Shown: one piece after another, positions 417 to 51,354 of the stretch | Layout of the letters: the number at the start of each line of letters is the position of its first letter | Position numbering within the stretch: position 1 is the stretch's first letter | Assembly: GCA_964393205.1 (NCBI GenBank) | Contig: CAYMSV010000001.1 | Coordinates: forward strand, 5,841-69,840 | Length of the DNA: 64,000 nucleotides | Reading direction: 5' to 3' | DNA from: an uncultured Pseudomonadales bacterium | GTDB taxonomy: Bacteria; Patescibacteriota; Microgenomatia; UBA1400; PJMF01 | Translations under genes and position numbers: made by a program | Notes under the pieces: model-generated | Database searches by the model: none | Told to the model about the DNA's origin: nothing | The model's input: the letters and a program-made list of their open reading frames with translations, nothing else

Positions 417-3353
417 ATGAAATTCAACGAACAATACACAGTCGAAAACCACATTATAAAATTTTTATCCAAAACACTTGGCTATGAATTCATCAAGCCA
501 GAGGAGTTTGCTCTTTTGCGTGAGCTGGAAAACCAGTATTTAGTTATTCCCCATCTTGCTGAAGCGATAAAGCAAATCAATGATTTGACTGATGATACTG
601 AAATACAAAGCGTCGTTAGGGAGGTAAAAAAGATTGATTCTAACGAGGGTTTTTTGAACCTATTGCGTAATGGAGTGAACATTAAGGATCCCACGACAGG
701 CAGAATGAGGGACTATGCGGTTGTTGACCATGACAATATTGAGAATAACCGCTTCGTAGTTACTAATCAGTTTTATTTTGAAGGTAACCTGGAAAATATC
801 AGAACTGATGTGATGATCTTTTTGAACGGTATCCCGGTGGTAGATATTGAAGCTAAAAGCCCCACCGCTTCCACTAGTGTCAGTTATGAGAATGCGATAG
901 GTCAAATCAAACGCTATGAGCGAGTAGCAATGAAGCTTTTTTGGCCAAACTTATTTAACATTGCGACCGATGGTCTCAAGACTGTCTATGGAACAACCTA
1001 TGCCCCAGAGCAGTACTTCTTGCAGTGGAGAGATGAAGAACTAGAAGAAAAGCTCGATGGGCAACTTGAGATGACTTTGGTGGCTTTGCTAGACAAAGAA
1101 AGATTACTGGACATCATCAAAAACTTTATATTATTCGAGCAGACAAAAGATGGGCGCATTAAAAAGATGGCTCGTTACCAGCAACTAAGGGCTACCAATA
1201 AGATTTTGGAGAGAGTCCAGGATGGTGAGAAAAGACGAGGTTTAATTTGGCATACCCAAGGATCTGGTAAATCGCTGACGATGTTTTTTACTGCTTGGAA
1301 GCTGAGGTTTTCCAAGGAATTGAAGAATCCTAAGGTGTTTGTTTTGGTAGATCGGATTGATCTTGATGATCAGATTTATGACACATTCGTTAACGCTGGC
1401 GGTAGAAATGTTATCCGTGTGACTTCGAGGCGTGATCTTGAGAAGAAAGTTACCAATGATGAACGAGGTATCTTCATCTCAACGATTGAGAAATTCAATG
1501 AATTGCCACTTGGTTTGGAGAATCCTACTGAAAATGTGATTGTGCTTTCTGACGAGGCGCATAGAACCAATGAAGGTGTGGCAGCGATTAAGCTGCGTGA
1601 CTCTATGGGAAAAGCCTTTTTCTTTGGCTTTACAGGTACTCCAATCGATAAAACAACACTTAATACTCACAGAAACTTTGGCCAAGAAGGCGAACGGTAT
1701 CTTGACTATTACTCTATTCAACAAGCCATAGATGATGGAGCAACTCTGCCAGTGACTTATGAGGCTCGATTATCGAAGTTTTTCATAGATGAGGATCGAG
1801 TGGACCAACAGTTTGACGAGATGACCACAGAGTTATCTGAAGAACAAAAACAACTAGTGATGAAGCGCTTTGGTAAAAAGGAAGCCCTGATTAAATTAGA
1901 CAAACGAATGCGAGCTGTTGCACAGGATATCGTAGATCATTATCGACTTTATATTGAGCCAAATGGTTTTAAAGCACAGATAGTCTGTTATGACAGAGAA
2001 TCGACAGCTAGGTATAAAGAGTTGTTTGATGAATTGATTCCCCCTGAGTGGTCAGAAGTAGTTTATTCTTCTGGCGATCCCAACTTAGATAAGGAGCACT
2101 TGAGGAAATATAACACCACTAAGGCTCAAAGAGAGCAAATTATTGAATCATTTAAAGACTCCAATAGTTCTCTCAAGTTGCTCTTAGTATGTGACATGTT
2201 GTTGACAGGATTTGATGCTCCAATTGAACAAGCTATGTATTTGGATAAACCATTGCGAGATCATAATCTTTTGCAAGCCATCGCCAGAACTAACCGTACC
2301 TATCCAAACAAGGGTTGCGGCAAGATTATTGATTACTATGGAATTACTAGAAATCTTTATGATGCTTTGAATTTTGATGAGAGCATTATCGACTCAGCCA
2401 TGATTGATTTGGATCACCTAAAACAAGAATTCCTTGAAGTACTAGGTGAGATTAAGGATATCTTCACTGGCATCAACCAAGAAGACCCCTCTATTGAGAA
2501 TTTAAGAACTTGTCTCAAGATTTTTATAGACAACGAAGGCAAACAGCGATACTTCACTGATAAGTACTCCAGATTAAAGCTCTTGTTTGAAGTCCTTTCT
2601 CCTGATCCTTTCTTAGCTCAATATATTAGAACTTTTGAATGGATTACCAGTGTTTACATTGCTTTTATCAACGAGTTCCGCTCTGAAAATCTGGCAATGG
2701 AAGCTTTTAGGGATGGTAGCATTCCTACCTTTGGTGAATATGGTCAGAAAGTTAAAAAATTAATCCAAGATAATCTAGATTATGAAGGAATCACCAAGAG
2801 TTTTAGAGAGCTTAATATCAATGATATCTACACACTGGAGCGGCTAGACAAAATGGATGATGAGGAAAAAGCTCTCAATCTTGAAAAGATGCTCAAGCAG
2901 GAAATTTCTATTAATATCGATACCAACCCTGTGTTTCAGAAGTTTAGTGAGAGATTGACCGCTATTCGCAAAGAGTTTGAACAGCATCAAATTGACCTCT
3001 CTGAGAGGATTAAACGTTATTACGATTTAATGAATGACATTAAGAGCAAATCTGATGAGGCAAAAGAATTGGGCTTAAACTTGCGAGAGTACGGACTTCT
3101 GGTTATCTCTCAAGAGTTCTTACCTGATACAGACCAAGCTATTGTTATCTCTCTTTCCAGAGACTTAGCAAAAAGGCTAGAAGCCATCCTCGACGAAGGT
3201 TGGCAAAATTCATCAAAACGAGAGGAGTTTTTGAAAGGTGTCAAACAAACGATTCAGGAACTAATCCTGAAAGAATACAGGGATAGAATTCAAGTCAAAG
3301 ATTTTCCTAAATTCTTAAACAGATTGGTTGATATCGTAATCAAAAAATTCTAA
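417..3353 (+). CDS. hsdR: Type I restriction enzyme R subunit (HsdR), SF2 helicase/endonuclease
   Basis: 978 aa; Walker A HTQGSGKSLTMF, DEAH box VLSDEAHRTNEG, HsdR-like length and domain order; ATG at 417. Confidence 0.85.
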   Translation: MKFNEQYTVENHIIKFLSKTLGYEFIKPEEFALLRELENQYLVIPHLAEAIKQINDLTDDTEIQSVVREVKKIDSNEGFLNLLRNGVNIKDPTTGRMRDYAVVDHDNIENNRFVVTNQFYFEGNLENIRTDVMIFLNGIPVVDIEAKSPTASTSVSYENAIGQIKRYERVAMKLFWPNLFNIATDGLKTVYGTTYAPEQYFLQWRDEELEEKLDGQLEMTLVALLDKERLLDIIKNFILFEQTKDGRIKKMARYQQLRATNKILERVQDGEKRRGLIWHTQGSGKSLTMFFTAWKLRFSKELKNPKVFVLVDRIDLDDQIYDTFVNAGGRNVIRVTSRRDLEKKVTNDERGIFISTIEKFNELPLGLENPTENVIVLSDEAHRTNEGVAAIKLRDSMGKAFFFGFTGTPIDKTTLNTHRNFGQEGERYLDYYSIQQAIDDGATLPVTYEARLSKFFIDEDRVDQQFDEMTTELSEEQKQLVMKRFGKKEALIKLDKRMRAVAQDIVDHYRLYIEPNGFKAQIVCYDRESTARYKELFDELIPPEWSEVVYSSGDPNLDKEHLRKYNTTKAQREQIIESFKDSNSSLKLLLVCDMLLTGFDAPIEQAMYLDKPLRDHNLLQAIARTNRTYPNKGCGKIIDYYGITRNLYDALNFDESIIDSAMIDLDHLKQEFLEVLGEIKDIFTGINQEDPSIENLRTCLKIFIDNEGKQRYFTDKYSRLKLLFEVLSPDPFLAQYIRTFEWITSVYIAFINEFRSENLAMEAFRDGSIPTFGEYGQKVKKLIQDNLDYEGITKSFRELNINDIYTLERLDKMDDEEKALNLEKMLKQEISINIDTNPVFQKFSERLTAIRKEFEQHQIDLSERIKRYYDLMNDIKSKSDEAKELGLNLREYGLLVISQEFLPDTDQAIVISLSRDLAKRLEAILDEGWQNSSKREEFLKGVKQTIQELILKEYRDRIQVKDFPKFLNRLVDIVIKKF

Positions 3354-6129: not shown

Positions 6130-7632
6130 ATGACCATTTCCAAATCCGACTACATGCTTTTTTTACGCCACTCGGCTTGGTTGTGGCTCAAAAAATACCA
6201 GCCAGAGCGCCTTCCTCAACCCGATGCCAATCTCCAAGCCATTTTTGACACTGGTCACCGCTTTGAAGCCTATGCTGAACAGCTCTTTAATGGTGCGGTT
6301 AAACTTGGTTTTACTGGCTATGAGCAGTATTTGAGTTTGCCAGCCAAGACTCAAGCCTTGCTTGATCAGTACACCCCAGTTATTTTGCAGGGTAGGCTAG
6401 AGGTCGATGGTTTAACCTGTATATTTGATGTCTTAGAGCGTGTTGACGAACACATCCTTAATCTCATCGAAATTAAATCTAGCACTAAGGCTAAGAGCGA
6501 GCATTTTTATGATTTAGCTTTCCAAGCGCTGATTCTGGAGCGCTCGGGTTGGCAAATTAATGAAATTAGTGTCTTACATGTTAATAATGACTATGTTCGC
6601 CAAGGAGAAATTGATCCGGCACAACTGACTGGTCGCACTGAGGTCACTGAGGAGGTCAAAGCTCTGCTGCCGGCCACCAAAGAGCTGGTTGAGCAGGCTT
6701 GGGCAGTAGTTAAGAGAGAGCAAGTGCCCTCTTTTTCACCTACCTTAGTCAATCAAGTAGGGGTGAAAGATGTTGGCTGGTTTAAGGACTGGTTGGGGAT
6801 TTATAAAGACTTACATCCAGATCTGGATTCCTCCAGTATTTATCATTTAGCTGGGCTCAATAGCAAGTTATTAAGCGAACTGGACGAGCAGGGGATTGAG
6901 CTGCTGGCAGATATTCCTATGGCTACAAAACTTAATTCCAAACAAGTAGCTCAAATTCAGGCCACCTGCAGTGGGGAGCGGCTGATAAATCAGCCAGCAA
7001 TTAAGGAATTTCTACAGTCACTACAGTATCCCTTATATTTTTTTGATTATGAAACCCTCAGTTCTGCCATTCCTTTTTTTGATGGCATGAAACCTTATCA
7101 GGATTATCCCTTTCAGTACTCCTTGCATGTTTTAAGGGCGCCCGATGCCAAACTAGAGCACCTTGAGTATTTGCACTCCACAAACAGCAATCCCATGCCC
7201 GAATTAATCGCGAAGTTAAAGAGCGATCTTGGTGAGCAGGGCAGTATTTTGGCTTGGAATAAGGTTTATGAAGAGAAATGCAATAATACGATGGCCGAGC
7301 TTTATCCAGAGGAAGCTGAGTTTTTACAGCAAGTTAATGAGCGCTTAGTAGATTTAATGTTGGTATTTCAACAGTTATATTTTGTCGATAAAGATTTTAA
7401 AGGCAGTGCTAGTTTGAAAAGTGTTTTGCCAGTTTTAGCGCCCGATTGCAGTTACAGCGATCTGAATGTTTCCGATGGATTATTGGCTAGAAGACTGTGG
7501 ACAAACACTATTTTGCTTAGTCAAAATGAGGCGGAGAAAGAAGCCATTCTAAAAGATCTGAGTGCATATTGTACTCTAGATACCTTTGGCATGGTGCGGA
7601 TTTTTGAGGAGTTGGGGAAGGTGGTGGGGTAA
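6130..7632 (+). CDS. DUF2779-like protein with N-terminal PD-(D/E)XK (RecB/Cas4-like) nuclease motifs
   Basis: GHRFEAY ... IFDVLERV ... LIEIKSS ... YDLAFQALIL matches motifs I-IV of the PD-(D/E)XK fold; C-terminal YFFDYETLSSAIPF...PFQYSLHVL resembles DUF2779; TATATAAT 15 nt upstream. Confidence 0.55.
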   Translation: MTISKSDYMLFLRHSAWLWLKKYQPERLPQPDANLQAIFDTGHRFEAYAEQLFNGAVKLGFTGYEQYLSLPAKTQALLDQYTPVILQGRLEVDGLTCIFDVLERVDEHILNLIEIKSSTKAKSEHFYDLAFQALILERSGWQINEISVLHVNNDYVRQGEIDPAQLTGRTEVTEEVKALLPATKELVEQAWAVVKREQVPSFSPTLVNQVGVKDVGWFKDWLGIYKDLHPDLDSSSIYHLAGLNSKLLSELDEQGIELLADIPMATKLNSKQVAQIQATCSGERLINQPAIKEFLQSLQYPLYFFDYETLSSAIPFFDGMKPYQDYPFQYSLHVLRAPDAKLEHLEYLHSTNSNPMPELIAKLKSDLGEQGSILAWNKVYEEKCNNTMAELYPEEAEFLQQVNERLVDLMLVFQQLYFVDKDFKGSASLKSVLPVLAPDCSYSDLNVSDGLLARRLWTNTILLSQNEAEKEAILKDLSAYCTLDTFGMVRIFEELGKVVG

Positions 7633-38956: not shown

Positions 38957-40483
38957 ATGAAACTTTATAATACCGTTTCGCGATCTATAGAAGAATTTCA
39001 AGCTCTAGAAGATAATTTTGTTAAGTTGTACGCTTGTGGTCCGACTGTTTATGATTACACTCATCTTGGTCATCTACGCAAGTATGTTTTGGATGATGTT
39101 TTAGTAAGAACATTGCGTCACGCTGGTTATGAGGTGAAGCATGTGCAAAATATTACTGATGTTGGTCATTTGGTTAGTGATGATGATGTGGGAGAGGACA
39201 AACTAGAAAAAGGGGCTAAAAAATATGGTACTGACGCGGAAGCTTTAGCTCGTCGTTTTGAAGATTATTTTTTTTATAGTATGGATTTGCTGGGGGTCTT
39301 GCGACCGAGTCTTAGTTGCCGTGCTACTGACCATATTCAAGCTCAGTTAGAAATGGTTTTAGCATTGGAGAAAAAAGATTTAACTTATGTTATTGAGGGA
39401 GATGGTGTTTATTTTGATACTAGTAAGATTGATGATTATGGCAAGTTAATTAATCAAGATCCGCAATTAGCTAAGCAAGTTTTAACAGCTCAGCGTGAAG
39501 GTGAGCGAGTCGACAAGGTGCCGGGGCGTAAACATCCAACCGATTTTGCGCTATGGAAATTTGAGCGTCCAGGAGAAAATAGACAAATGGTTTGGTCTAG
39601 TCCTTGGCACGAACGTAGTTTTCCAGGTTGGCATATTGAGTGTAGCGCTATGTCACTTGAGCATTTAGGCGATCAAATTGATATTCACACTGGAGGAATT
39701 GACCATATTAACATCCATCACACTAATGAGATTGCTCAAACTGAAGCCGTAACTGGTAAAAAACCCTTTAGTCGTTATTGGGTGCATCACAATCATCTGT
39801 TTGTTGAGGGTCAAAAAATGAGTAAGTCTCTCAATAACTTTTATACAATAGACAATATTATTGAGCGAGGCTATTTGCCGAAGGCCTTACGCCTACTATT
39901 TTTAATGAGTCACTATCGTAGTGAACAAAACTTTACTTGGGATAGCCTGCAAGCCGCTCACAAAGCTTATTTAAAACTTGTTTATTTTGTTTTAAAATTG
40001 CGCGCTAATAAAGACAATCGAGAAATTGAGTTAAGTGATTTTCCAGGAGCCATGCAACTGCGTAGTGATTTTTTTACAGCTATGGAAAATGATTTAAAAA
40101 CAAATGAGGCTTTAACAGTATTATGGGAGTTATTAAAAAGTGATTTAGATGCTGATGTTTTGTATCGATTAATTATGGAATTTGATCAGGTTTTGGGACT
40201 TGGTTTAGCTGGGATTAGTGAGGAATATTTATTAAAATCTCTACGCCAATCTTTAAACAAAAAAATAATTGATGTAGATTTAGCTCAAAGTTTAGGTTTG
40301 GAAGCAGAAGGTTTGCGCTTGGCAGATTTGCCAGCTCAGGTGAGACATCTAGTAGAAGAGCGCCAAATTGCACGTCAAGACAAAGATTTTGCCAAAGCCG
40401 ATGAATATCGAGCACAAATTAAAGAACATGGTTTTGAACTTTTGGATATGGAAAATAACGAGCTACTGATTAGAAAAATTTAA
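38957..40483 (+). CDS. cysS: cysteinyl-tRNA synthetase
   Basis: HIGH-type motif YTHLGHLRKY, Zn ligand CGPTVYD, KMSKS motif. Confidence 0.9.
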   Translation: MKLYNTVSRSIEEFQALEDNFVKLYACGPTVYDYTHLGHLRKYVLDDVLVRTLRHAGYEVKHVQNITDVGHLVSDDDVGEDKLEKGAKKYGTDAEALARRFEDYFFYSMDLLGVLRPSLSCRATDHIQAQLEMVLALEKKDLTYVIEGDGVYFDTSKIDDYGKLINQDPQLAKQVLTAQREGERVDKVPGRKHPTDFALWKFERPGENRQMVWSSPWHERSFPGWHIECSAMSLEHLGDQIDIHTGGIDHINIHHTNEIAQTEAVTGKKPFSRYWVHHNHLFVEGQKMSKSLNNFYTIDNIIERGYLPKALRLLFLMSHYRSEQNFTWDSLQAAHKAYLKLVYFVLKLRANKDNREIELSDFPGAMQLRSDFFTAMENDLKTNEALTVLWELLKSDLDADVLYRLIMEFDQVLGLGLAGISEEYLLKSLRQSLNKKIIDVDLAQSLGLEAEGLRLADLPAQVRHLVEERQIARQDKDFAKADEYRAQIKEHGFELLDMENNELLIRKI

Positions 40484-42742: not shown

Positions 42743-42770
42743 GCCCCATCGTATGATGGGGCTATTTTTT
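42743..42770. terminator. bidirectional rho-independent terminator
   Basis: GCCCCATC-GTAT-GATGGGGC perfect 8-bp stem flanked by A run upstream and TATTTTTT downstream; sits between convergent genes. Confidence 0.8.
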
Positions 42771-43047
42771 ACTGGCTGTTGTTTTTGTACGCAGCCCTTG
42801 CCTCCCCTAGGGAAGCCTTGGCTGCGTTCAGCTCCTCACGGAGCCGACTCACCTCTTCCTGCGCATAAAAATATGCGCAGGCCTGCTGATTGCCATTAAG
42901 ACAATCTGCAGCAGGATTCTTGCTGTTGGATGACCAAATCATTCCAATAACAAGAATTATGATAACAATTACCAGTACGATAATGACAACACGGTTTTTC
43001 TTTTCCACGTTGTCACCTCCTTTTTCCATTGCCGTTTGAATTTCCAC
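42769..43047 (-). CDS. small membrane-anchored protein with coiled-coil tail; 3' half encoded by anomalously GC-rich DNA
   Basis: TM helix VVIIVLVIVIIILVIGMIW; segment 42781-42900 is 67/120 = 56% GC by direct count and contains two strong palindromes. Confidence 0.4.
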   Translation of the reverse strand: MEIQTAMEKGGDNVEKKNRVVIIVLVIVIIILVIGMIWSSNSKNPAADCLNGNQQACAYFYAQEEVSRLREELNAAKASLGEARAAYKNNSQ

Positions 43048-48117: not shown

Positions 48118-48525
48118 CTAACTCTTTTTGTCAGTTGCTGTTGGTTTATCAGCTTTTACTGTTTTTTGATCAGCGCTAGCTTCTTTGTCTTTAACAGTTA
48201 CTGATTTTTTTAGATTTTTGATAGCTTGCTGCTGTTCTTGAAGAATTTGTTTGTAAGATTTAACAGGAGCATTTGTTTTTTGAGTAGCTTTTTTGGCAGT
48301 TTTTTTAGCCTTAGCGAGAGCTTCAGCAGTAGCTCGCTTTTTAATAAATTTATCAACTCGACCCTGACGATCAACAAATTTCATTTCACCAGTAAAAAAA
48401 GGATGACAAGCGCTACAAATATCTACGCTTAGCGTCTTATTCATTGATCCAGTAACGAAACTGTTTCCACAGCTACAAGTTACTACACAATCGTGGTGCC
48501 AATCTGGATGTATACCTTGTTTCAT
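48118..48525 (-). CDS. rpmE: 50S ribosomal protein L31 with Lys-rich C-terminal extension
   Basis: [12 protein letters not shown]...CSCG...[10 protein letters not shown] zinc-ribbon bL31 signature. Confidence 0.85.
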
Positions 48526-48559: not shown

Positions 48560-49828
48560 CTAAATAGTGGATTTATTTTTTTTATTTCTAACTGTTTCAA
48601 TTAGTGTTTGCAAATCTAATTCTTTTTGTTCGCCTGTATCTAGATTTTTAAGACTGATAAGGTTTTTATCTATTTCTTCACTACCAACGATTATCACCCA
48701 AGGGATATTCTTATCTTGTGCTAACTTAAATTGTTTACCAATCTTATCTTTTTCCAGATAAATTTCAGTGCTTATGTCAGCTGATCTCAAATTTTTACTT
48801 ATTTCTAAAGCTTTTTTTTGACAAGTATCATCGTCAAAAATACTGATTAAAACTTGAGCACTAGGCTCAGATTTTAATTGTTTTTTTTCTTTAATTAACT
48901 CAACAATTCTATCAAAACCTAAACCAAATCCTACAGCCGGCATATCTAAACCTGATAATTCTTCAATCAAATTATCATAGCGACCTCCAGCTCCTAAGCT
49001 ACCACTACCATATTTAGCAATTTTTCCTTCAAAAATTAAGCCAGTATAGTAATCTAAACCACGAGCTATTTTTGGGTTAAAAACGAGAGCTTCCTGAGGC
49101 ACTCCTAGTTCTATGGTTTTTTGTTCAATTTTTATTAAACTTTCTGATTTATCAATATTATTTAATCTAGAAAAAATTGACTCAACCACTTGTCGATTAA
49201 GGCCTTTGGCTATCAGCTCATTAGTGACTTCTTCGGGTGATAATTTATCTAGTTTATCAATACTTTGAATAATAGATAAAACAGAAACTCGCTCTTTGGC
49301 GAATTCGCTAAAACTATCAAGCAAAAGTTGTCGATCGTTATACTCGATTTTAATATCAACCAAACCTAAGCTTTTAAAAATATCATAAAAAACAGCTAAG
49401 ATTTCTGCATCAGCTAGAGGAGAGCGACTGCCAAAAATATCAGCATCACATTGTATAAACTCCCGATAGCGGCCTCGTTGAGGTTTGTCTGCTCGAAAAA
49501 CGCTTTGAATTTGAAAGCGGCGCAAATATTTAGGCAATTCATTTTGATAGTTAGCTAGTACTCTAGCTGTGGGTACGGTTTGGTCATAACGCAAGCCAAG
49601 TTTTCGGCCACCTCGATCAGTAAAGGTGTAGAGTAATTTATCTGCTTCTTCACCATATTTGCCCAATAGTAAACTAGCGTACTCTAGAGTAGGAGTTTCA
49701 AAAGGCACAAAAGCAAAACGCTTAAAACTATCCCGAATGATAGAGCGTACTTTTTCTCTCAAACTGGCTTCTGTTGGTAAAAAATCACGAAAGCCCTTGA
49801 GTGTTTGTAACTGATTATTCTTTTTCAT
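48560..49828 (-). CDS. hisS: histidyl-tRNA synthetase
   Basis: Class II motifs: LKGFRDFLP, YTFTDRGGRKLGLRYDQTVP, RRFQIQSVFRADKPQRGRYREF; C-terminal anticodon-binding domain present. Confidence 0.9.
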   Translation of the reverse strand: MKKNNQLQTLKGFRDFLPTEASLREKVRSIIRDSFKRFAFVPFETPTLEYASLLLGKYGEEADKLLYTFTDRGGRKLGLRYDQTVPTARVLANYQNELPKYLRRFQIQSVFRADKPQRGRYREFIQCDADIFGSRSPLADAEILAVFYDIFKSLGLVDIKIEYNDRQLLLDSFSEFAKERVSVLSIIQSIDKLDKLSPEEVTNELIAKGLNRQVVESIFSRLNNIDKSESLIKIEQKTIELGVPQEALVFNPKIARGLDYYTGLIFEGKIAKYGSGSLGAGGRYDNLIEELSGLDMPAVGFGLGFDRIVELIKEKKQLKSEPSAQVLISIFDDDTCQKKALEISKNLRSADISTEIYLEKDKIGKQFKLAQDKNIPWVIIVGSEEIDKNLISLKNLDTGEQKELDLQTLIETVRNKKNKSTI

Positions 49829-49853
49829 AAAATTCCTTTATATATTTATTGTA

Positions 49854-49880
49854 CAAAAAAATCCCCGTTATCAGGGGATT
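49854..49880 (-). terminator. intrinsic terminator of the hisS attenuator (AAUCCCC-UGAUAAC-GGGGAUU + U6), 26 nt upstream of the hisS start codon
   Basis: Plus strand atcccc(49861-66)/ggggat(49874-79) with A run 49855-60; an identical GGGGAU at 49914-19 can pair with the same 5' arm as an antiterminator. Confidence 0.7.
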
Positions 49881-49921
49881 AATTATTATTTGCTCATTTA
49901 AGCAATACAAAACATCCCCTC

Positions 49922-49972
49922 TTACGAGTGGTGATGATGAACTGCTAAAGTTTGAGCAATTAATTTTTGCAT
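49922..49972 (-). CDS. hisS leader peptide MQKLIAQTLAVHHHHS
   Basis: Hand-translated minus-strand ORF ATG CAA AAA TTA ATT GCT CAA ACT TTA GCA GTT CAT CAT CAC CAC TCG TAA; four consecutive His codons; stop is 2 nt before antiterminator arm. Confidence 0.65.
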   Translation of the reverse strand: MQKLIAQTLAVHHHHS

Positions 49973-49981
49973 CAGAGGAAT

Positions 49982-50010
49982 ATTATATGTTTTTTAGGCC
50001 CATTAGTCAA
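49982..50010 (-). promoter_or_regulatory. near-consensus sigma-70 promoter TTGACT-N17-TATAAT driving the His leader (leaderless, 9 nt to ATG)
   Basis: Minus-strand hexamers are reverse complements of plus agtcaa(50005-10) and attata(49982-87). Confidence 0.65.
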
Positions 50011-50070
50011 ACAATTATTTGTTATAATTTGCTTGGATTGAGCTCTTAAGTTTAATCTTTAATAAAAAAC

Positions 50071-50144
50071 GGGCCTGTAGCTCAGTTGGCTAGAGCGCTG
50101 CATTCGCATTGCAGAGGTCAGGGATTCGATTTCCCTCAGGTCCA
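50071..50144 (+). tRNA. tRNA-Ala (anticodon CGC)
   Basis: Cloverleaf folded by hand: acceptor GGGCCTG/CAGGTCC with G3:U70 Ala identity pair, anticodon loop TT-CGC-AT, T-loop TTCGATT, discriminator A; no encoded CCA. Confidence 0.9.
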
Positions 50145-50846
50145 CTAATTGGCTAAATCTACCAAGGCTTTGATACTGCTCACAAGCCACTGTCCGTCTG
50201 TTTTAGCGGTAGCGACAATTAGACATTGAAGGTCAGAGTAGAGATCTCTAAGGCTTATTTCATCTCCATTATCATCAAAATATTGAGTGTTTTTATCTAA
50301 TAAAAAGTTCAAATCACTTTCTCCAGTTCGAGAATCAAATAATAAATTATTAGAATAGAGTTCAGTAATGCTGCCGATTGTTATTTTTCGATCTTCTTGA
50401 GTAAAGTCTGTTTCTGTTAATAAAATTCTTTTAGGAACAGAAACATCCTTTTCAACTACACTATAAACAATAACCCAGTCATCAACTGCAATTTCATCAA
50501 GTTCAATTTCTTCTTCTTTTTTAACAATTTCTAAATCTTCAGTTAGTGGAACCACAATATTATTTTGATTATTAAGAACAGTGAGAGTTTCTGCACTAAC
50601 TCTTTTGACTTGAGCGAGATAAGCTTGTTTAAGCTGTGTTGGTTGTTGATCGTTTTGACCTAGTTCAACCTGTTTGTCTTGGATGACTTTCTTGATATTT
50701 GAGATAGTAGATTCCTCAGTAGCTTCTGACTCAGTCTGGGCATTAATCATGGGTATAGCAAAAAACAACGAAATCATGATAAAAAAACCAGTGATCAAAT
50801 AAAAGTTTTGCGATTTAAAGAATTGTTTATTGTTTAATTTTGACAT
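50145..50846 (-). CDS. membrane-anchored/secreted hypothetical protein
   Basis: Start at internal Met (MSKLNN..) gives tandem non-overlapping arrangement; TM helix then Glu/Thr-rich region. Confidence 0.4.
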   Translation of the reverse strand: MSKLNNKQFFKSQNFYLITGFFIMISLFFAIPMINAQTESEATEESTISNIKKVIQDKQVELGQNDQQPTQLKQAYLAQVKRVSAETLTVLNNQNNIVVPLTEDLEIVKKEEEIELDEIAVDDWVIVYSVVEKDVSVPKRILLTETDFTQEDRKITIGSITELYSNNLLFDSRTGESDLNFLLDKNTQYFDDNGDEISLRDLYSDLQCLIVATAKTDGQWLVSSIKALVDLAN

Positions 50847-50847
50847 C

Positions 50848-51354
50848 TTAGTTATCTTCTGTTTCTTCTTCGTTTGCTTCTTCTTCAGTTGTTTCTTGAT
50901 TGTCATTATTGCTTTGACTAAAGTCTTCATTGAGAAAATCAGCGTCAACAATGACTGTTCGAGTGGCTTGATTAAGCAAGCCGTCTTGATTAATGCTGTA
51001 GATTTTCAAAACATTAGCGCCCTGATCCAATCTGACTTCTTTTGAAAAATTACCAGATTCATCTGCACTGCTAATCACTTCCTCATTATTAACAAAAACA
51101 ACTACAAAATTATTAGCATTGGTATTACCACTAACGATGAGACGTTGACTATCGGTAATGAGGTTATCTTCAGGAGAAGTAATGGCCAATTGGCTATTAT
51201 CTTCATTTTCATCCAAAACGGGGTTTTTTATTACGTCTTGAACCTGATCCTTTTGAGCGTCACTGATGTTACGACGGCTTTGGTAAACTCCAAAAGTAAT
51301 TAAAAGACCTAAGCTGATACCTATAACAACTGCTAAAAGAACTTCTTTTCGCAT
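50848..51354 (-). CDS. secreted hypothetical protein with acidic C-terminus
   Basis: Signal/TM MRKEVLLAVVIGISLGLLITFGVY; no motif recognised. Confidence 0.4.
   Translation of the reverse strand: MRKEVLLAVVIGISLGLLITFGVYQSRRNISDAQKDQVQDVIKNPVLDENEDNSQLAITSPEDNLITDSQRLIVSGNTNANNFVVVFVNNEEVISSADESGNFSKEVRLDQGANVLKIYSINQDGLLNQATRTVIVDADFLNEDFSQSNNDNQETTEEEANEEETEDN

Follow-up and report, generated by a model that had tools for sequence, protein, structure and literature searches.

The window, that is, the entire 64-kb stretch of DNA that was analysed and that comes from an uncultured Microgenomates (CPR) bacterium, carries on its minus strand a true hisS gene (histidine--tRNA ligase; TIGR00442, 389.8 bits versus a cut-off of 286.75). 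For its upstream region, the original prediction had proposed a leader-peptide attenuator with His codons. The features of this region and of the gene 3′ of it are listed below in the direction of transcription; the family mentioned consists of 15 distinct leader sequences that are described further below.

50005..50010, minus strand: −35 hexamer TTGACT of the leader promoter P1 (promoter scan)
49982..49987, minus strand: −10 hexamer TATAAT of P1 (promoter scan)
49922..49972, minus strand: leader ORF MQKLIAQTLAVHHHHS with its stop codon (read from the sequence; mRNA predicted to be leaderless or to have a leader of 1–3 nt)
49928..49939, minus strand: putative regulatory His codons CAU CAU CAC CAC, codons 12–15 (read from the sequence)
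49926..49936, minus strand: core of region 1, CAUCACCACUC, partner of region 2 (folding; pairing in 15 of 15 family members)
49913..49921, minus strand: region 2, GAGGGGAUG, partner of region 1 or region 3, beginning directly after the stop codon
49885..49909, minus strand: spacer after region 2 (folding, compensatory changes)
49873..49880, minus strand: region 3, AAUCCCCU, 5′ arm of the terminator and antiterminator partner of region 2 (AGGGGAU:AUCCCCU; folding)
49855..49866, minus strand: region 4, GGGGAUU plus U7 tract, predicted intrinsic terminator together with region 3 (7-bp stem, 7-nt loop, in 15 of 15 family members)
49848..49853, minus strand: −10-like hexamer TACAAT, candidate weak second promoter P2, 1 nt past the U tract
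49834..49838, minus strand: Shine-Dalgarno motif AAGGA of hisS (read from the sequence)
48560..49828, minus strand: hisS, 422 aa, the regulated gene in the proposed model (PF13393, 1.6e-38; TIGR00442)

The promoter and the short ORF were found exactly as originally predicted. TTGACT and TATAAT are separated by a 17-nt spacer (promoter scan score 11/12), the 9 nt ATTCCTCTG separate the −10 hexamer from the ATG (49972-49970), and the 16 codons for MQKLIAQTLAVHHHHS include four consecutive His codons, followed by Ser and a stop codon at 49924-49922 (ATG CAA AAA TTA ATT GCT CAA ACT TTA GCA GTT CAT CAT CAC CAC TCG TAA). The configuration TTGAC(T/C)-17-TATAAT was read from the sequences of 14 of the 15 family members, with TGCTATAAT in its place in L171, and the distance from the −10 hexamer to the leader ATG is 6–11 nt in all 15. 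The short distance between the −10 box and the ATG means that the leader ORF, if translated as predicted, must rely on a leaderless or nearly leaderless mRNA; the transcription start is expected at about 49975-49972, and at most about 3 nt of RNA would thus precede the ORF. No Shine-Dalgarno sequence was found for the leader ORF. Leaderless starts appear to be normal in the source genome: a −10-to-ATG geometry of this type was observed for 17 of the 69 long ORFs in the window (about a quarter), versus 5.3% of all ATGs, and the promoters of real genes in the window often lack a recognizable −35 hexamer. The substitution pattern yielded no coding signal for the leader ORF, that is, third codon positions show no bias, and in 11 of the 15 members the +2 frame is open as well. 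Therefore, it is the geometry, not the substitution pattern, that supports coding, and we infer that the leader ORF is translated.

The gene following hisS, rpmE, has a TATAAT-N11-ATG of its own at 48525, so that the hisS transcription unit is probably monocistronic. A scan of the ten largest ORFs detected only one other synthetase gene, cysS (38957-40483), which has a leaderless-type start without a leader. Other attenuators were not found in the window.

The pairing segments, too, are present at the positions assigned to them by the original prediction. A first GGGGAU (49919-49914), 2 nt past the stop codon, can pair with AUCCCC (49879-49874), and the latter can alternatively pair with a second GGGGAU (49866-49861), followed by a run of seven U (up to 49855) that lies 26 nt before the hisS ATG at 49828. 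The terminator stem AAUCCCC/GGGGAUU has 7 bp with 4 G-C pairs, precedes the U7 tract directly and has a free energy of −9.7 kcal/mol; the 2:3 duplex has −12.7 kcal/mol (−9.5 to −14.7 kcal/mol across the 15 members). In addition, CAUC-A-CC-A-CUC in region 1 (49936-49926) pairs with region 2 (49921-49913) in a 1:2 anti-antiterminator helix that is extended by outer helices, and the leader thus has three mutually exclusive helices. Because of this 1:2 helix, which was absent from the original prediction, the element is predicted to be a full four-segment attenuator with the 1:2/2:3/3:4 design of the trp/his/pheST type. The spacer after region 2 can pair with ORF nt 49964-49938 and thereby contribute the outer portion of the long 1:2 hairpin; alternatively, it folds into an inner hairpin, UUGCUUAAAUGAGCAA, within the antiterminator. 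UUUUG, immediately after region 2 (49912-49908), may be a pause site, at which the 1:2 hairpin and the UUUUG would act together. A pairing of a 5′ AUUCCU with the Shine-Dalgarno motif of hisS, which was seen in the first fold, was rejected, as these bases are located upstream of the likely transcription start.

Folding of the leader RNA with ribosome footprints masked resulted in either the antiterminator or the terminator. Without a ribosome, the 1:2 hairpin and the terminator were formed; with the A site on the first or the second His codon, the antiterminator was formed (−20.8 and −18.5 kcal/mol, respectively); and with the A site on the stop codon, the terminator was formed. The masked folds thus switch as anticipated by the initial model, according to which a ribosome stalled at the His codons would favor the antiterminator and a ribosome at the stop codon the terminator.

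The element is very likely a ribosome-mediated (leader-peptide) transcription attenuator, by means of which the transcription of hisS responds to the charging level of tRNA-His. The sequence of events, from stalling and termination to the response to His and the regulatory outcome, would be as follows. Transcription from P1 would begin at, or very close to, the AUG of the 16-codon leader ORF, and a ribosome would load on this leaderless start and trail the RNA polymerase. When His-tRNA-His is plentiful, the ribosome would reach the UAA and its footprint would mask the G-run of region 2; region 3 (AAUCCCC) would then pair with region 4 (GGGGAUU), and transcription would end at the U7 tract, about 118 nt from the start. 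When His-tRNA-His is scarce, the ribosome would stall while its A site is on codon 12 or 13 (His), cover region 1 and leave region 2 free to pair with region 3 as soon as the latter has been made (AGGGGAU:AUCCCCU); in the absence of the terminator, the polymerase would continue into hisS, which would be translated from its own Shine-Dalgarno motif. Without any translation, regions 1 and 2 would form the long hairpin, and the terminator would form as well.

The arrangement exceeds what would be expected from sequence composition. The leader fold has −41.6 kcal/mol and a z-score of −4.9, and none of 200 shuffled sequences was equally stable. In 128 kb (both strands), two occurrences of the motif (CAY)4 were counted, versus 0.09 expected by base composition. 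A scan of the 64 kb for perfect stems revealed only three intergenic terminator hairpins, namely that of the leader and those located 3′ of rpsR (45644) and of the gene 42769-43047, and the hisS leader contains the only short ATG ORF in the window that has two consecutive His codons and is followed by a terminator. In principle, an AT-rich intergenic region could harbor a fortuitous short ORF next to the terminator of a neighboring gene; promoter-like hexamers are indeed as common in this region as in shuffled sequences, and the hairpin is scored on the plus strand, too. However, plus-strand transcription toward the hairpin would only be antisense to hisS, the nearest upstream gene on the minus strand ends 267 nt away, beyond a tRNA-Ala gene on the opposite strand and a consensus promoter, and the rarity of (CAY)4 as well as the retention of the arrangement in 15 diverged sequences contradict this reading, so that chance, already deemed unlikely in the original prediction, is hardly credible. 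A role of the terminator for a neighboring gene or for the plus strand was rejected on the basis of the gene layout.

A comparison with related genomes, proposed along with the original prediction, revealed a conserved His-codon ORF and terminator in 15 distinct leader sequences (the query and 14 others) from independent NCBI, ENA, JGI and Logan assemblies. The associated HisRS proteins are 60–100% identical to that of the query, about 60% being the lower limit. A HisRS identical to that of the query is encoded on 12 contigs from NCBI, JGI, ENA, and Logan. In all 15 sequences the leader is located between a divergent tRNA-Ala(CGC) gene and hisS-rpmE-prf, the leader ORF has 16–18 codons, and the terminator is present. 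Two consecutive CAY codons are in frame throughout, at codons 12-13 or, with a 3-nt insertion, at codons 13-14. These first two His codons are invariant, whereas the third was observed in 11 of the 15 sequences and the fourth in two; L166, L169, L171, and L175 have only two His codons. The invariant positions are exactly the two at which a stalled ribosome leaves region 2 uncovered. After the His pair, two to three further codons, a stop codon abutting GGGG, UCCCC, GGGGA, and a run of U are invariant, and no sense codons other than the His codons and the first codons of the ORF are conserved; loops and spacers could not be aligned between subgroups. The invariant features correspond to the parts that the attenuation model requires, and the comparison strengthens the initial model. 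Relatives without the leader also lack a Shine-Dalgarno motif, and their hisS starts 6–9 nt after a −10 box, that is, it is of the leaderless type.

The pairings were analyzed by alignment-free helix tests for each sequence, because a MAFFT alignment of all 15 sequences misplaced the G-run by 1–2 columns, with RNAalifold recovering only the terminator, and because the covariation counts from the eight alignable close relatives were weak: there were two compensatory pairs, with scores not above the shuffle control, and the G and C runs of the core are without any variation. Examples of compensatory changes are U-A/C-G (columns 11-87 of A4) and, in L001, GU/UA to AU/CG. In each of the 15 sequences, the G-run lies −1 to +4 nt from the stop codon and pairs with C-rich codons at or past the last His codon; once the footprint of a stalled ribosome is masked, it pairs with region 3. 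In 13 of the 15 members, the 2:3 duplex outperformed 90% or more of the dinucleotide shuffles, and in L167 it was not better than the shuffles. The base 5′ of the G-run covaries with the base 3′ of the C-run (A-U, C-G, or U-A); the latter is located in the terminator loop and is therefore constrained by the antiterminator only. In equilibrium folds with the stalled ribosome masked, the terminator was still preferred in 7 of the 15 members, and their switch would therefore depend on co-transcriptional kinetics.

A scan of JGI metagenomes for HisRS yielded no relative closer than 57% and no new leaders of the main family, and it led to L112, L117, L120, and L125. In more distant Microgenomates, three other His leaders (L112, L022, and L125) were found ahead of hisS operons; their match to the family profile is weak or absent. 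The leader of L112 precedes a tRNA-His gene, which begins 2 nt past the U tract of the attenuator, that of L022 precedes a histidine-racemase-like gene and hisS, and that of L125 precedes an AstE-like gene and hisS. Although the sequences differ, the geometry of ORF, His codons, and stop codon is that of the family. The cognate logic, a His leader ahead of His-related genes, thus seems to recur independently. In L019, L099, and L123, a tRNA-His gene is located upstream of hisS, yet no His-codon ORF was found there. Tentatively, leaderless His leader peptides might make up a histidine-sensing regulon that spans the Microgenomates lineage, with hisS and the histidine-racemase-like gene as targets and, in one lineage at least (L112), also tRNA-His; this extension is speculative. 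If it is true, L112 would, to our knowledge, be the first case of a ribosome-mediated attenuator that governs a tRNA gene. A literature search revealed no description of an amino-acid-responsive cis-regulator for Microgenomates.

These comparisons also bear on the possibility that promoter, short ORF, and terminator are a stand-alone unit, for example a gene for a small protein or a small RNA, that hisS is transcribed from P2 (TACAAT, 49853-49848), and that the His codons are unrelated to hisS control. A TAnAAT-type hexamer is located 1–5 nt past the U tract in 13 of the 15 members, GTACAATAAA is identical in the eight closest members, and a lone −10 box might suffice, as for real genes of the window without a recognizable −35. 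Such a unit would, however, leave unexplained why a copy of the terminator 3′ arm is found exactly at the stop codon in all 15 members, why a base of the terminator loop covaries with the base 5′ of this copy, and why, apart from the first codons, only the His codons are conserved among the sense codons. The peptide shows no constraint at the amino acid level. Moreover, the leader is always tied to hisS, and other genes related to His have independent His leaders in front of them. We regard a stand-alone unit as improbable. P2 may nevertheless be a weak second promoter that provides basal hisS expression and could thus allow transcription independent of the attenuator; this is compatible with attenuation, as a weak P2 could secure a basal supply of HisRS.

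Somewhat less probable still is a ribosome-independent RNA switch, in which a factor such as HisRS, tRNA-His, or another protein binds the long leader hairpin and the ORF is incidental. Such a switch would fit the pronounced structure of the leader (the z-score given above), the mostly open +2 frame, and the missing codon-position bias, and aminoacyl-tRNA synthetase genes elsewhere do have leaders that sense tRNA or protein, examples being the T-box and the thrS operator of E. coli, respectively. It is at odds with the lack of a T-box match and of membership in any Rfam family, and also with the position of the AUG, which is always at the distance from the −10 box that is typical of leaderless starts. 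Furthermore, CAY-CAY stays in frame in all 15 members even across 3-nt indels, the in-frame stop codon always abuts region 2, and L112, L022, and L125 share the geometry of ORF, His codons, and stop codon in spite of their different sequences.

The proposed attenuator was also compared with known regulatory systems. At gathering thresholds, the search of the whole window against Rfam detected two tRNAs only. The T-box (RF00230) did not match the leader at the gathering threshold or at E <= 10, in line with the earlier failure to find a T-box motif, and His_leader (RF00514) did not match at gathering or, on 49800-50070, at E <= 10. The best alignment was obtained with Phe_leader (RF01859; 25.4 bits, E = 0.026, full-length over 49853-49976), which is below the gathering threshold of 55 bits and reflects a resemblance in architecture, not membership. 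The experimentally established pheST leader of E. coli (pheM) likewise combines a short ORF of cognate codons, a choice between terminator and antiterminator, and a synthetase for the amino acid specified by these codons, but it senses Phe instead of His, belongs to another phylum, and differs from the leader ORF described here, which is leaderless and has no Shine-Dalgarno sequence. The usual regulator of hisS in Firmicutes is the T-box riboswitch. With the T-box, too, uncharged tRNA-His results in more HisRS via read-through of a leader terminator, but the tRNA is bound directly, whereas the proposed sensor in the CPR leader is a translating ribosome. The enterobacterial his operon leader (hisL) and trpL share the four-segment logic of 1:2, 2:3, and 3:4 pairing; in both, the regulatory codons are within or just before region 1, and the stop codon adjoins region 2. 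However, hisL has seven His codons, compared to two to four here, it controls biosynthesis genes and not a synthetase gene, and its translation is not leaderless.

pheST is the model for synthetase attenuators and, along with leuS and trpS2, belongs to the genes with a known or predicted classical attenuator (PMC1262725). The initial view that hisS is usually unregulated or controlled by a T-box was incomplete, since a His leader peptide had been predicted, by computation only, before the hisS paralog (hisS*) and hisZ in bacilli (Naville & Gautheret 2010, PMC2965389). In these cases, too, a His-codon ORF and a terminator precede a gene of the HisRS family, but the target is a paralog beside a T-box-controlled hisS, whereas the CPR leader precedes a hisS in conserved synteny. 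In Paenibacillus L071 and L079, we found ORFs of the type M..QLHHHKRR* just 5′ of hisS, followed by a GC-rich terminator. These differ from the CPR leaders in their Shine-Dalgarno-type context, their longer GC-rich structures, and their peptide (..QLHHHKRR versus MQK..HHHHS), and neither was matched at E <= 10 by an nhmmer profile built from the 15 CPR leaders. With respect to a short ORF with which the transcript begins, the closest parallel considered is that of polycysteine leaderless short ORFs in mycobacteria (Actinobacteria), which, as outlined in a preprint, act as attenuators and sense the amino acid by ribosome stalling (bioRxiv 10.1101/834739); the phylum, the amino acid, and the target genes differ, and the comparison covers the leader ORF. 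Leader-peptide attenuators of synthetase genes are thus already known or predicted for pheST, leuS, trpS, and the bacillus hisS paralog, and the CPR hisS leader appears to be a new family, absent from Rfam, of this known kind.

Bacteria of the CPR/Patescibacteria are uncultured and genome-reduced, they are presumed to rely on hosts for their amino acids, and very little is known about their gene regulation. In a literature search, we found no description of a leader-peptide attenuator in Patescibacteria and nothing specific on leaderless translation or attenuation in the CPR. The understanding of the attenuation mechanism itself is unchanged by the results, and a seed alignment of 15 members is now available for a family that is absent from Rfam. 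If the proposed model is correct, the classical attenuation of synthetase genes would have arisen in yet another phylum, instead of the T-box solution. The hisS leader is thus a concrete candidate for amino-acid sensing in the CPR via translation of a leaderless mini-ORF, and the proposed point of control would be the single enzyme that charges tRNA-His.

Direct reading of positions 49700-50200 of the window located every element of the His-codon attenuator that the original prediction had described upstream of hisS. The elements are listed below, together with a -10-like hexamer that follows the U tract.

Elements of the hisS leader region in the window (sequence reading)
50010-50005, minus strand: promoter -35 box TTGACT, with a 17-nt spacer to the -10 box
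49987-49982, minus strand: promoter -10 box TATAAT
49972, minus strand: leader start ATG, 9 nt downstream of the -10 box
from 49972, minus strand: leader ORF MQKLIAQTLAVHHHHS
49939-49928, minus strand: His codons CAT CAT CAC CAC of the leader ORF
49924-49922, minus strand: leader stop codon TAA
49919-49914, minus strand: first GGGGAT, after the leader stop
49879-49874, minus strand: ATCCCC, the terminator C-run
49866-49861, minus strand: second GGGGAT, followed by the T-run (seven T in total)
49853-49848, minus strand: -10-like TACAAT after the U tract
49828, minus strand: hisS start ATG

The TTGACT-17-TATAAT promoter scored 11/12 in a promoter scan. The identity of the downstream gene was also borne out: 48560-49828 encodes a true histidine--tRNA ligase with matches to PF13393, PF03129, and TIGR00442 (389.8 bits, cut-off 286.75). 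A divergent tRNA-Ala(CGC) gene lies at 50071-50145 and, therefore, the interval from the promoter to hisS is a self-contained 5' region. Beyond it, between the tRNA-Ala gene and a Glucodextran_B-domain gene, a conserved gene of about 240 codons without a Pfam family (50145-50951, minus strand) occupies this place in every close relative. The start of the window (417-3353, plus strand) encodes a type I restriction enzyme R subunit with HSDR_N, SWI2_SNF2, and T1R domains.

In the original prediction, two pairings were opposed, namely, an antiterminator, in which the first G-run (region 2) pairs with the C-run (region 3), and a terminator, in which region 3 pairs with the second G-run (region 4). 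This switch was recovered, but a further helix had been overlooked. In the minimum-energy fold, region 2 (GAGGGGAUG, 49921-49913) also pairs backwards with CAUC-A-CC-A-CUC (49936-49926), a segment composed of the final His codons plus the Ser codon (region 1). The loop of this 1:2 core is GUAA, with the stop codon inside, and the core is prolonged by outer helices between ORF nucleotides 49964-49938 and spacer nucleotides 49909-49885. Thus, the element has the complete four-segment design (1:2, anti-antiterminator; 2:3, antiterminator; 3:4, terminator), a layout it has in common with the trp, his, and pheST attenuators. Folding had been proposed as a check for mutually exclusive helices, and the switch was reproduced in folds that masked a ribosome footprint whose edge lay 13 nt from the start of the A-site codon.

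Masked-footprint folding of the window leader
No ribosome: 1:2 plus terminator, -36.8 kcal/mol
A site on His1: antiterminator, -20.8 kcal/mol
A site on His2: antiterminator, -18.5 kcal/mol
A site on stop: terminator, -15.0 kcal/mol

By several comparisons, the element is more than a product of chance. For the 153-nt RNA that spans the -10 box to hisS, the folding energy is -41.6 kcal/mol (z = -4.9), a stability reached by none of 200 shuffles. Runs of (CAY)4 occur twice in 128 kb (both strands), compared to 0.09 expected from base composition. Across the window, a perfect-stem scan detected intergenic terminator hairpins at three sites, one in the hisS leader and two after gene ends (rpsR, 45644; the gene at 42769-43047); the hisS leader was the sole window site at which a scan found a short HH-containing ATG ORF followed by a perfect-stem terminator.

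The source organism is a Microgenomates-group CPR bacterium, and the nearest named HisRS proteins carry the labels Woesebacteria (72% identity) and Pacebacteria (61%). A scan of species-representative genomes yielded three close loci with the leader-hisS unit (L001-L003), and a protein search, followed by examination of twelve contigs, added 11 further distinct leader versions; a JGI metagenome scan contained no HisRS relative above 57% identity. Conservation of the His-codon ORF and the terminator in related genomes, on which the original prediction had been made to depend, was thus found in 15 distinct sequences (that of the window included), whose HisRS proteins are from 100% down to about 60% identical to that of the window. 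All 15 share the synteny tRNA-Ala(CGC)/hisS/rpmE/prf; the leader unit is absent at two loci with HisRS identities of 59% (L173) and 57% (L004) and at loci of lower identity. In every member, an ATG 6-11 nt past TATAAT opens an ORF of 16-18 codons with His-His at codons 12-13 (13-14 in L170, which has an exact 3-nt insertion), 2-4 His codons overall, and 2-3 further codons. The stop codon then lies -1 to +4 nt from a run of 4-5 G, and a C-run/G-run terminator (-8.7 to -10.6 kcal/mol) with 5-8 U precedes the hisS ATG by 20-80 nt. TTGAC(T/C)-17-TATAAT is discernible in 14 of the 15. In the 15-way alignment, the columns without variation (the ATG, part of the following A-rich stretch, CA-CA of two His codons, GG, UCCCC, GGGA, and the U run) are, at the level of sequence, the parts that the attenuator model would require, and loops and spacers are not alignable between subgroups. 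Two distant members, L171 (321-371) and L175 (1148-1200), carry an extra conserved stretch, ATGAAYTATGATGRTTTAAATCAGC, between terminator and hisS that is absent from the others and possibly constitutes a second mini-ORF (MNYDD* / MNYDGLNQLER*).

All three helices were found in all 15 members: 1:2 between the G-run and C-rich codons from the last His codon onward, 2:3 between the G-run and the terminator C-run (with the stalled ribosome masked and region 4 not yet made), and the 3:4 terminator. The 2:3 duplexes (-9.5 to -14.7 kcal/mol) beat at least 90% of dinucleotide-preserving spacer shuffles in 13 members; L162 was borderline (47/500 shuffles) and L167 no better than shuffles. The flanks of this helix vary by lineage: AGGGGAU:AUCCCCU in the window, CGGGGA:UCCCCG in L169, UUGGGG:CCCCAA in L172, AUGGGGG:CCCCCAU in L174, and GAUUGGGG:CCCCAAUC in L175. 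The base 5' of the G-run covaries with the base 3' of the C-run as A-U, C-G, or U-A; the latter sits in the terminator loop and is, therefore, constrained by the antiterminator alone. The first two His codons, at which stalls leave region 2 free, are invariant; the third and fourth, at which stalls in the window would start covering region 2, are variable. Among the 8 alignable close sequences, 86.8% of the cells were paired, compared to 38-49% with partners slid, a comparison favoring the true register because the structure came from one of these sequences; compensatory change was limited to two pairs, and covariation scores were not above the shuffle control. In equilibrium folding, 7 of the 15 members still prefer the terminator with a stalled ribosome and thus need the usual kinetic argument.

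No Shine-Dalgarno motif precedes the leader ORF. With the ATG only 9 nt past TATAAT, the transcript would begin at the AUG or within about 3 nt, and we infer that the mRNA is leaderless or nearly so. From this geometry, we argue that the leader ORF would be translated; the 15 members show no third-position bias in it, and frame +2 is also open in 11. A -10-like hexamer lies 5-12 nt ahead of the ATG in 17 of the 69 long ORFs of the window, compared to 5.3% of all window ATGs with such a hexamer at 6-11 nt, and 7 of the 14 exact TATAAT-N6-11-ATG sites are starts of ORFs of at least 135 aa. Judged from these counts, the -10-to-ATG leaderless geometry is normal in the source genome, in which leaderless mRNAs appear to be in wide use. 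Of the long ORFs, about a quarter begin 6-12 nt past a TATAAT-like box (for example, at 6130, 16160, 37362, 48525, 51354, and 62520), usually without a recognizable -35 box or Shine-Dalgarno motif. In at least 14 Microgenomates lacking the leader, hisS itself begins 6-9 nt after a -10 box, whereas hisS with the leader upstream carries the Shine-Dalgarno motif AAGGA instead, which fits insertion of the attenuator between the ancestral promoter and hisS. A -10-like hexamer (TACAAT, TAGAAT, or TAAAAT) follows the U tract by 1-5 nt in 13 of the 15 members, and GTACAATAAA at this site is invariant among the 8 closest. This hexamer may act as a weak additional promoter that supplies basal hisS expression, or it may be functionless.

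An ORF-plus-terminator scan with follow-up identified three other, more distant Microgenomates His leaders, for which the family profile gave weak matches (L112, E = 0.0056; L022, 0.37) or no hit (L125).

Distant His leaders in Microgenomates, with the genes downstream of each terminator
L112: MTIVLVVHHHRF*, promoter TTGACA-16-TACAAT-N7-ATG; then tRNA-His(GUG), a second candidate leader, a histidine-racemase-like gene, and hisS
L022, L117, and L120: MKLKLNKNLESHHHPLNGGL*; then the L112-type racemase-like gene and hisS
L125 (117-214): candidate leader MNRISFEIIAHHSAS*; then an AstE/AspA-like gene (PF24827) and hisS

The L112 leader (60-290, JGI contig Ga0233420_10005795) shows all three pairings (1:2, 2:3, and 3:4), with 2 nt between the end of its terminator U tract and the tRNA-His(GUG) gene (208-282); on this one contig, it looks like a predicted leader-peptide attenuator before a tRNA gene. 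Masked-footprint folds of L112 and L125 switch as the model predicts. The L022 fold retains the terminator even with the ribosome masked at the His codons and, therefore, the exact 8-bp 2:3 complementarity is the sole support for a switch there. That leaders with His codons recur ahead of His-related genes is an argument for these codons as the sensor. In Roizmanbacteria-type genomes, the racemase-like gene lies between a His leader with its terminator and hisS (region 2032-2968 of L022, also L117 and L120; 597-1397 of L112). Its 265-aa product has no Pfam match, and its greatest similarity is to histidine racemases (PDB 9cr1, E = 3e-16; NCBIfam His_racem_CntK, 2e-19, below the cut-off of that model).

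Among synthetase genes, pheST has an established classical attenuator, and such attenuators have been predicted for Streptomyces leuS and trpS2 (PMC1262725) and, in bacilli, for a hisS paralog and hisZ (PMC2965389). His-codon mini-ORFs ahead of hisS were also seen in unrelated phyla. In two Paenibacillus loci (L071, 2823-2990; L079, 2838-2990), a His-codon mini-ORF (..QLHHHKRR*) with a GC-rich terminator lies closely upstream of hisS; these elements are of the kind predicted for bacilli (PMC2965389) and, in a family-profile search, are unrelated in sequence to the CPR family. A Phenylobacterium locus (L080, 2739-2816) also has a His-codon mini-ORF, MIRVSHHHGHHHPTAH..., closely upstream of hisS. 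Regulatory mini-ORFs with leaderless starts are known from mycobacteria (bioRxiv 10.1101/834739). No Rfam family matched the window leader, including His_leader and T-box; the best sub-threshold match was Phe_leader (25.4 bits, threshold 55). A literature search for leader-peptide attenuation in Patescibacteria returned no paper on the subject, by which measure this mode of regulation is previously unreported in the phylum. Taken together, the conserved anatomy, the helices, and the masked folds support the interpretation as a His-codon attenuator, and the window element very probably acts by this mechanism. In sequence, the leader represents a new family, with a predicted leaderless start; its kind of regulation is well known.
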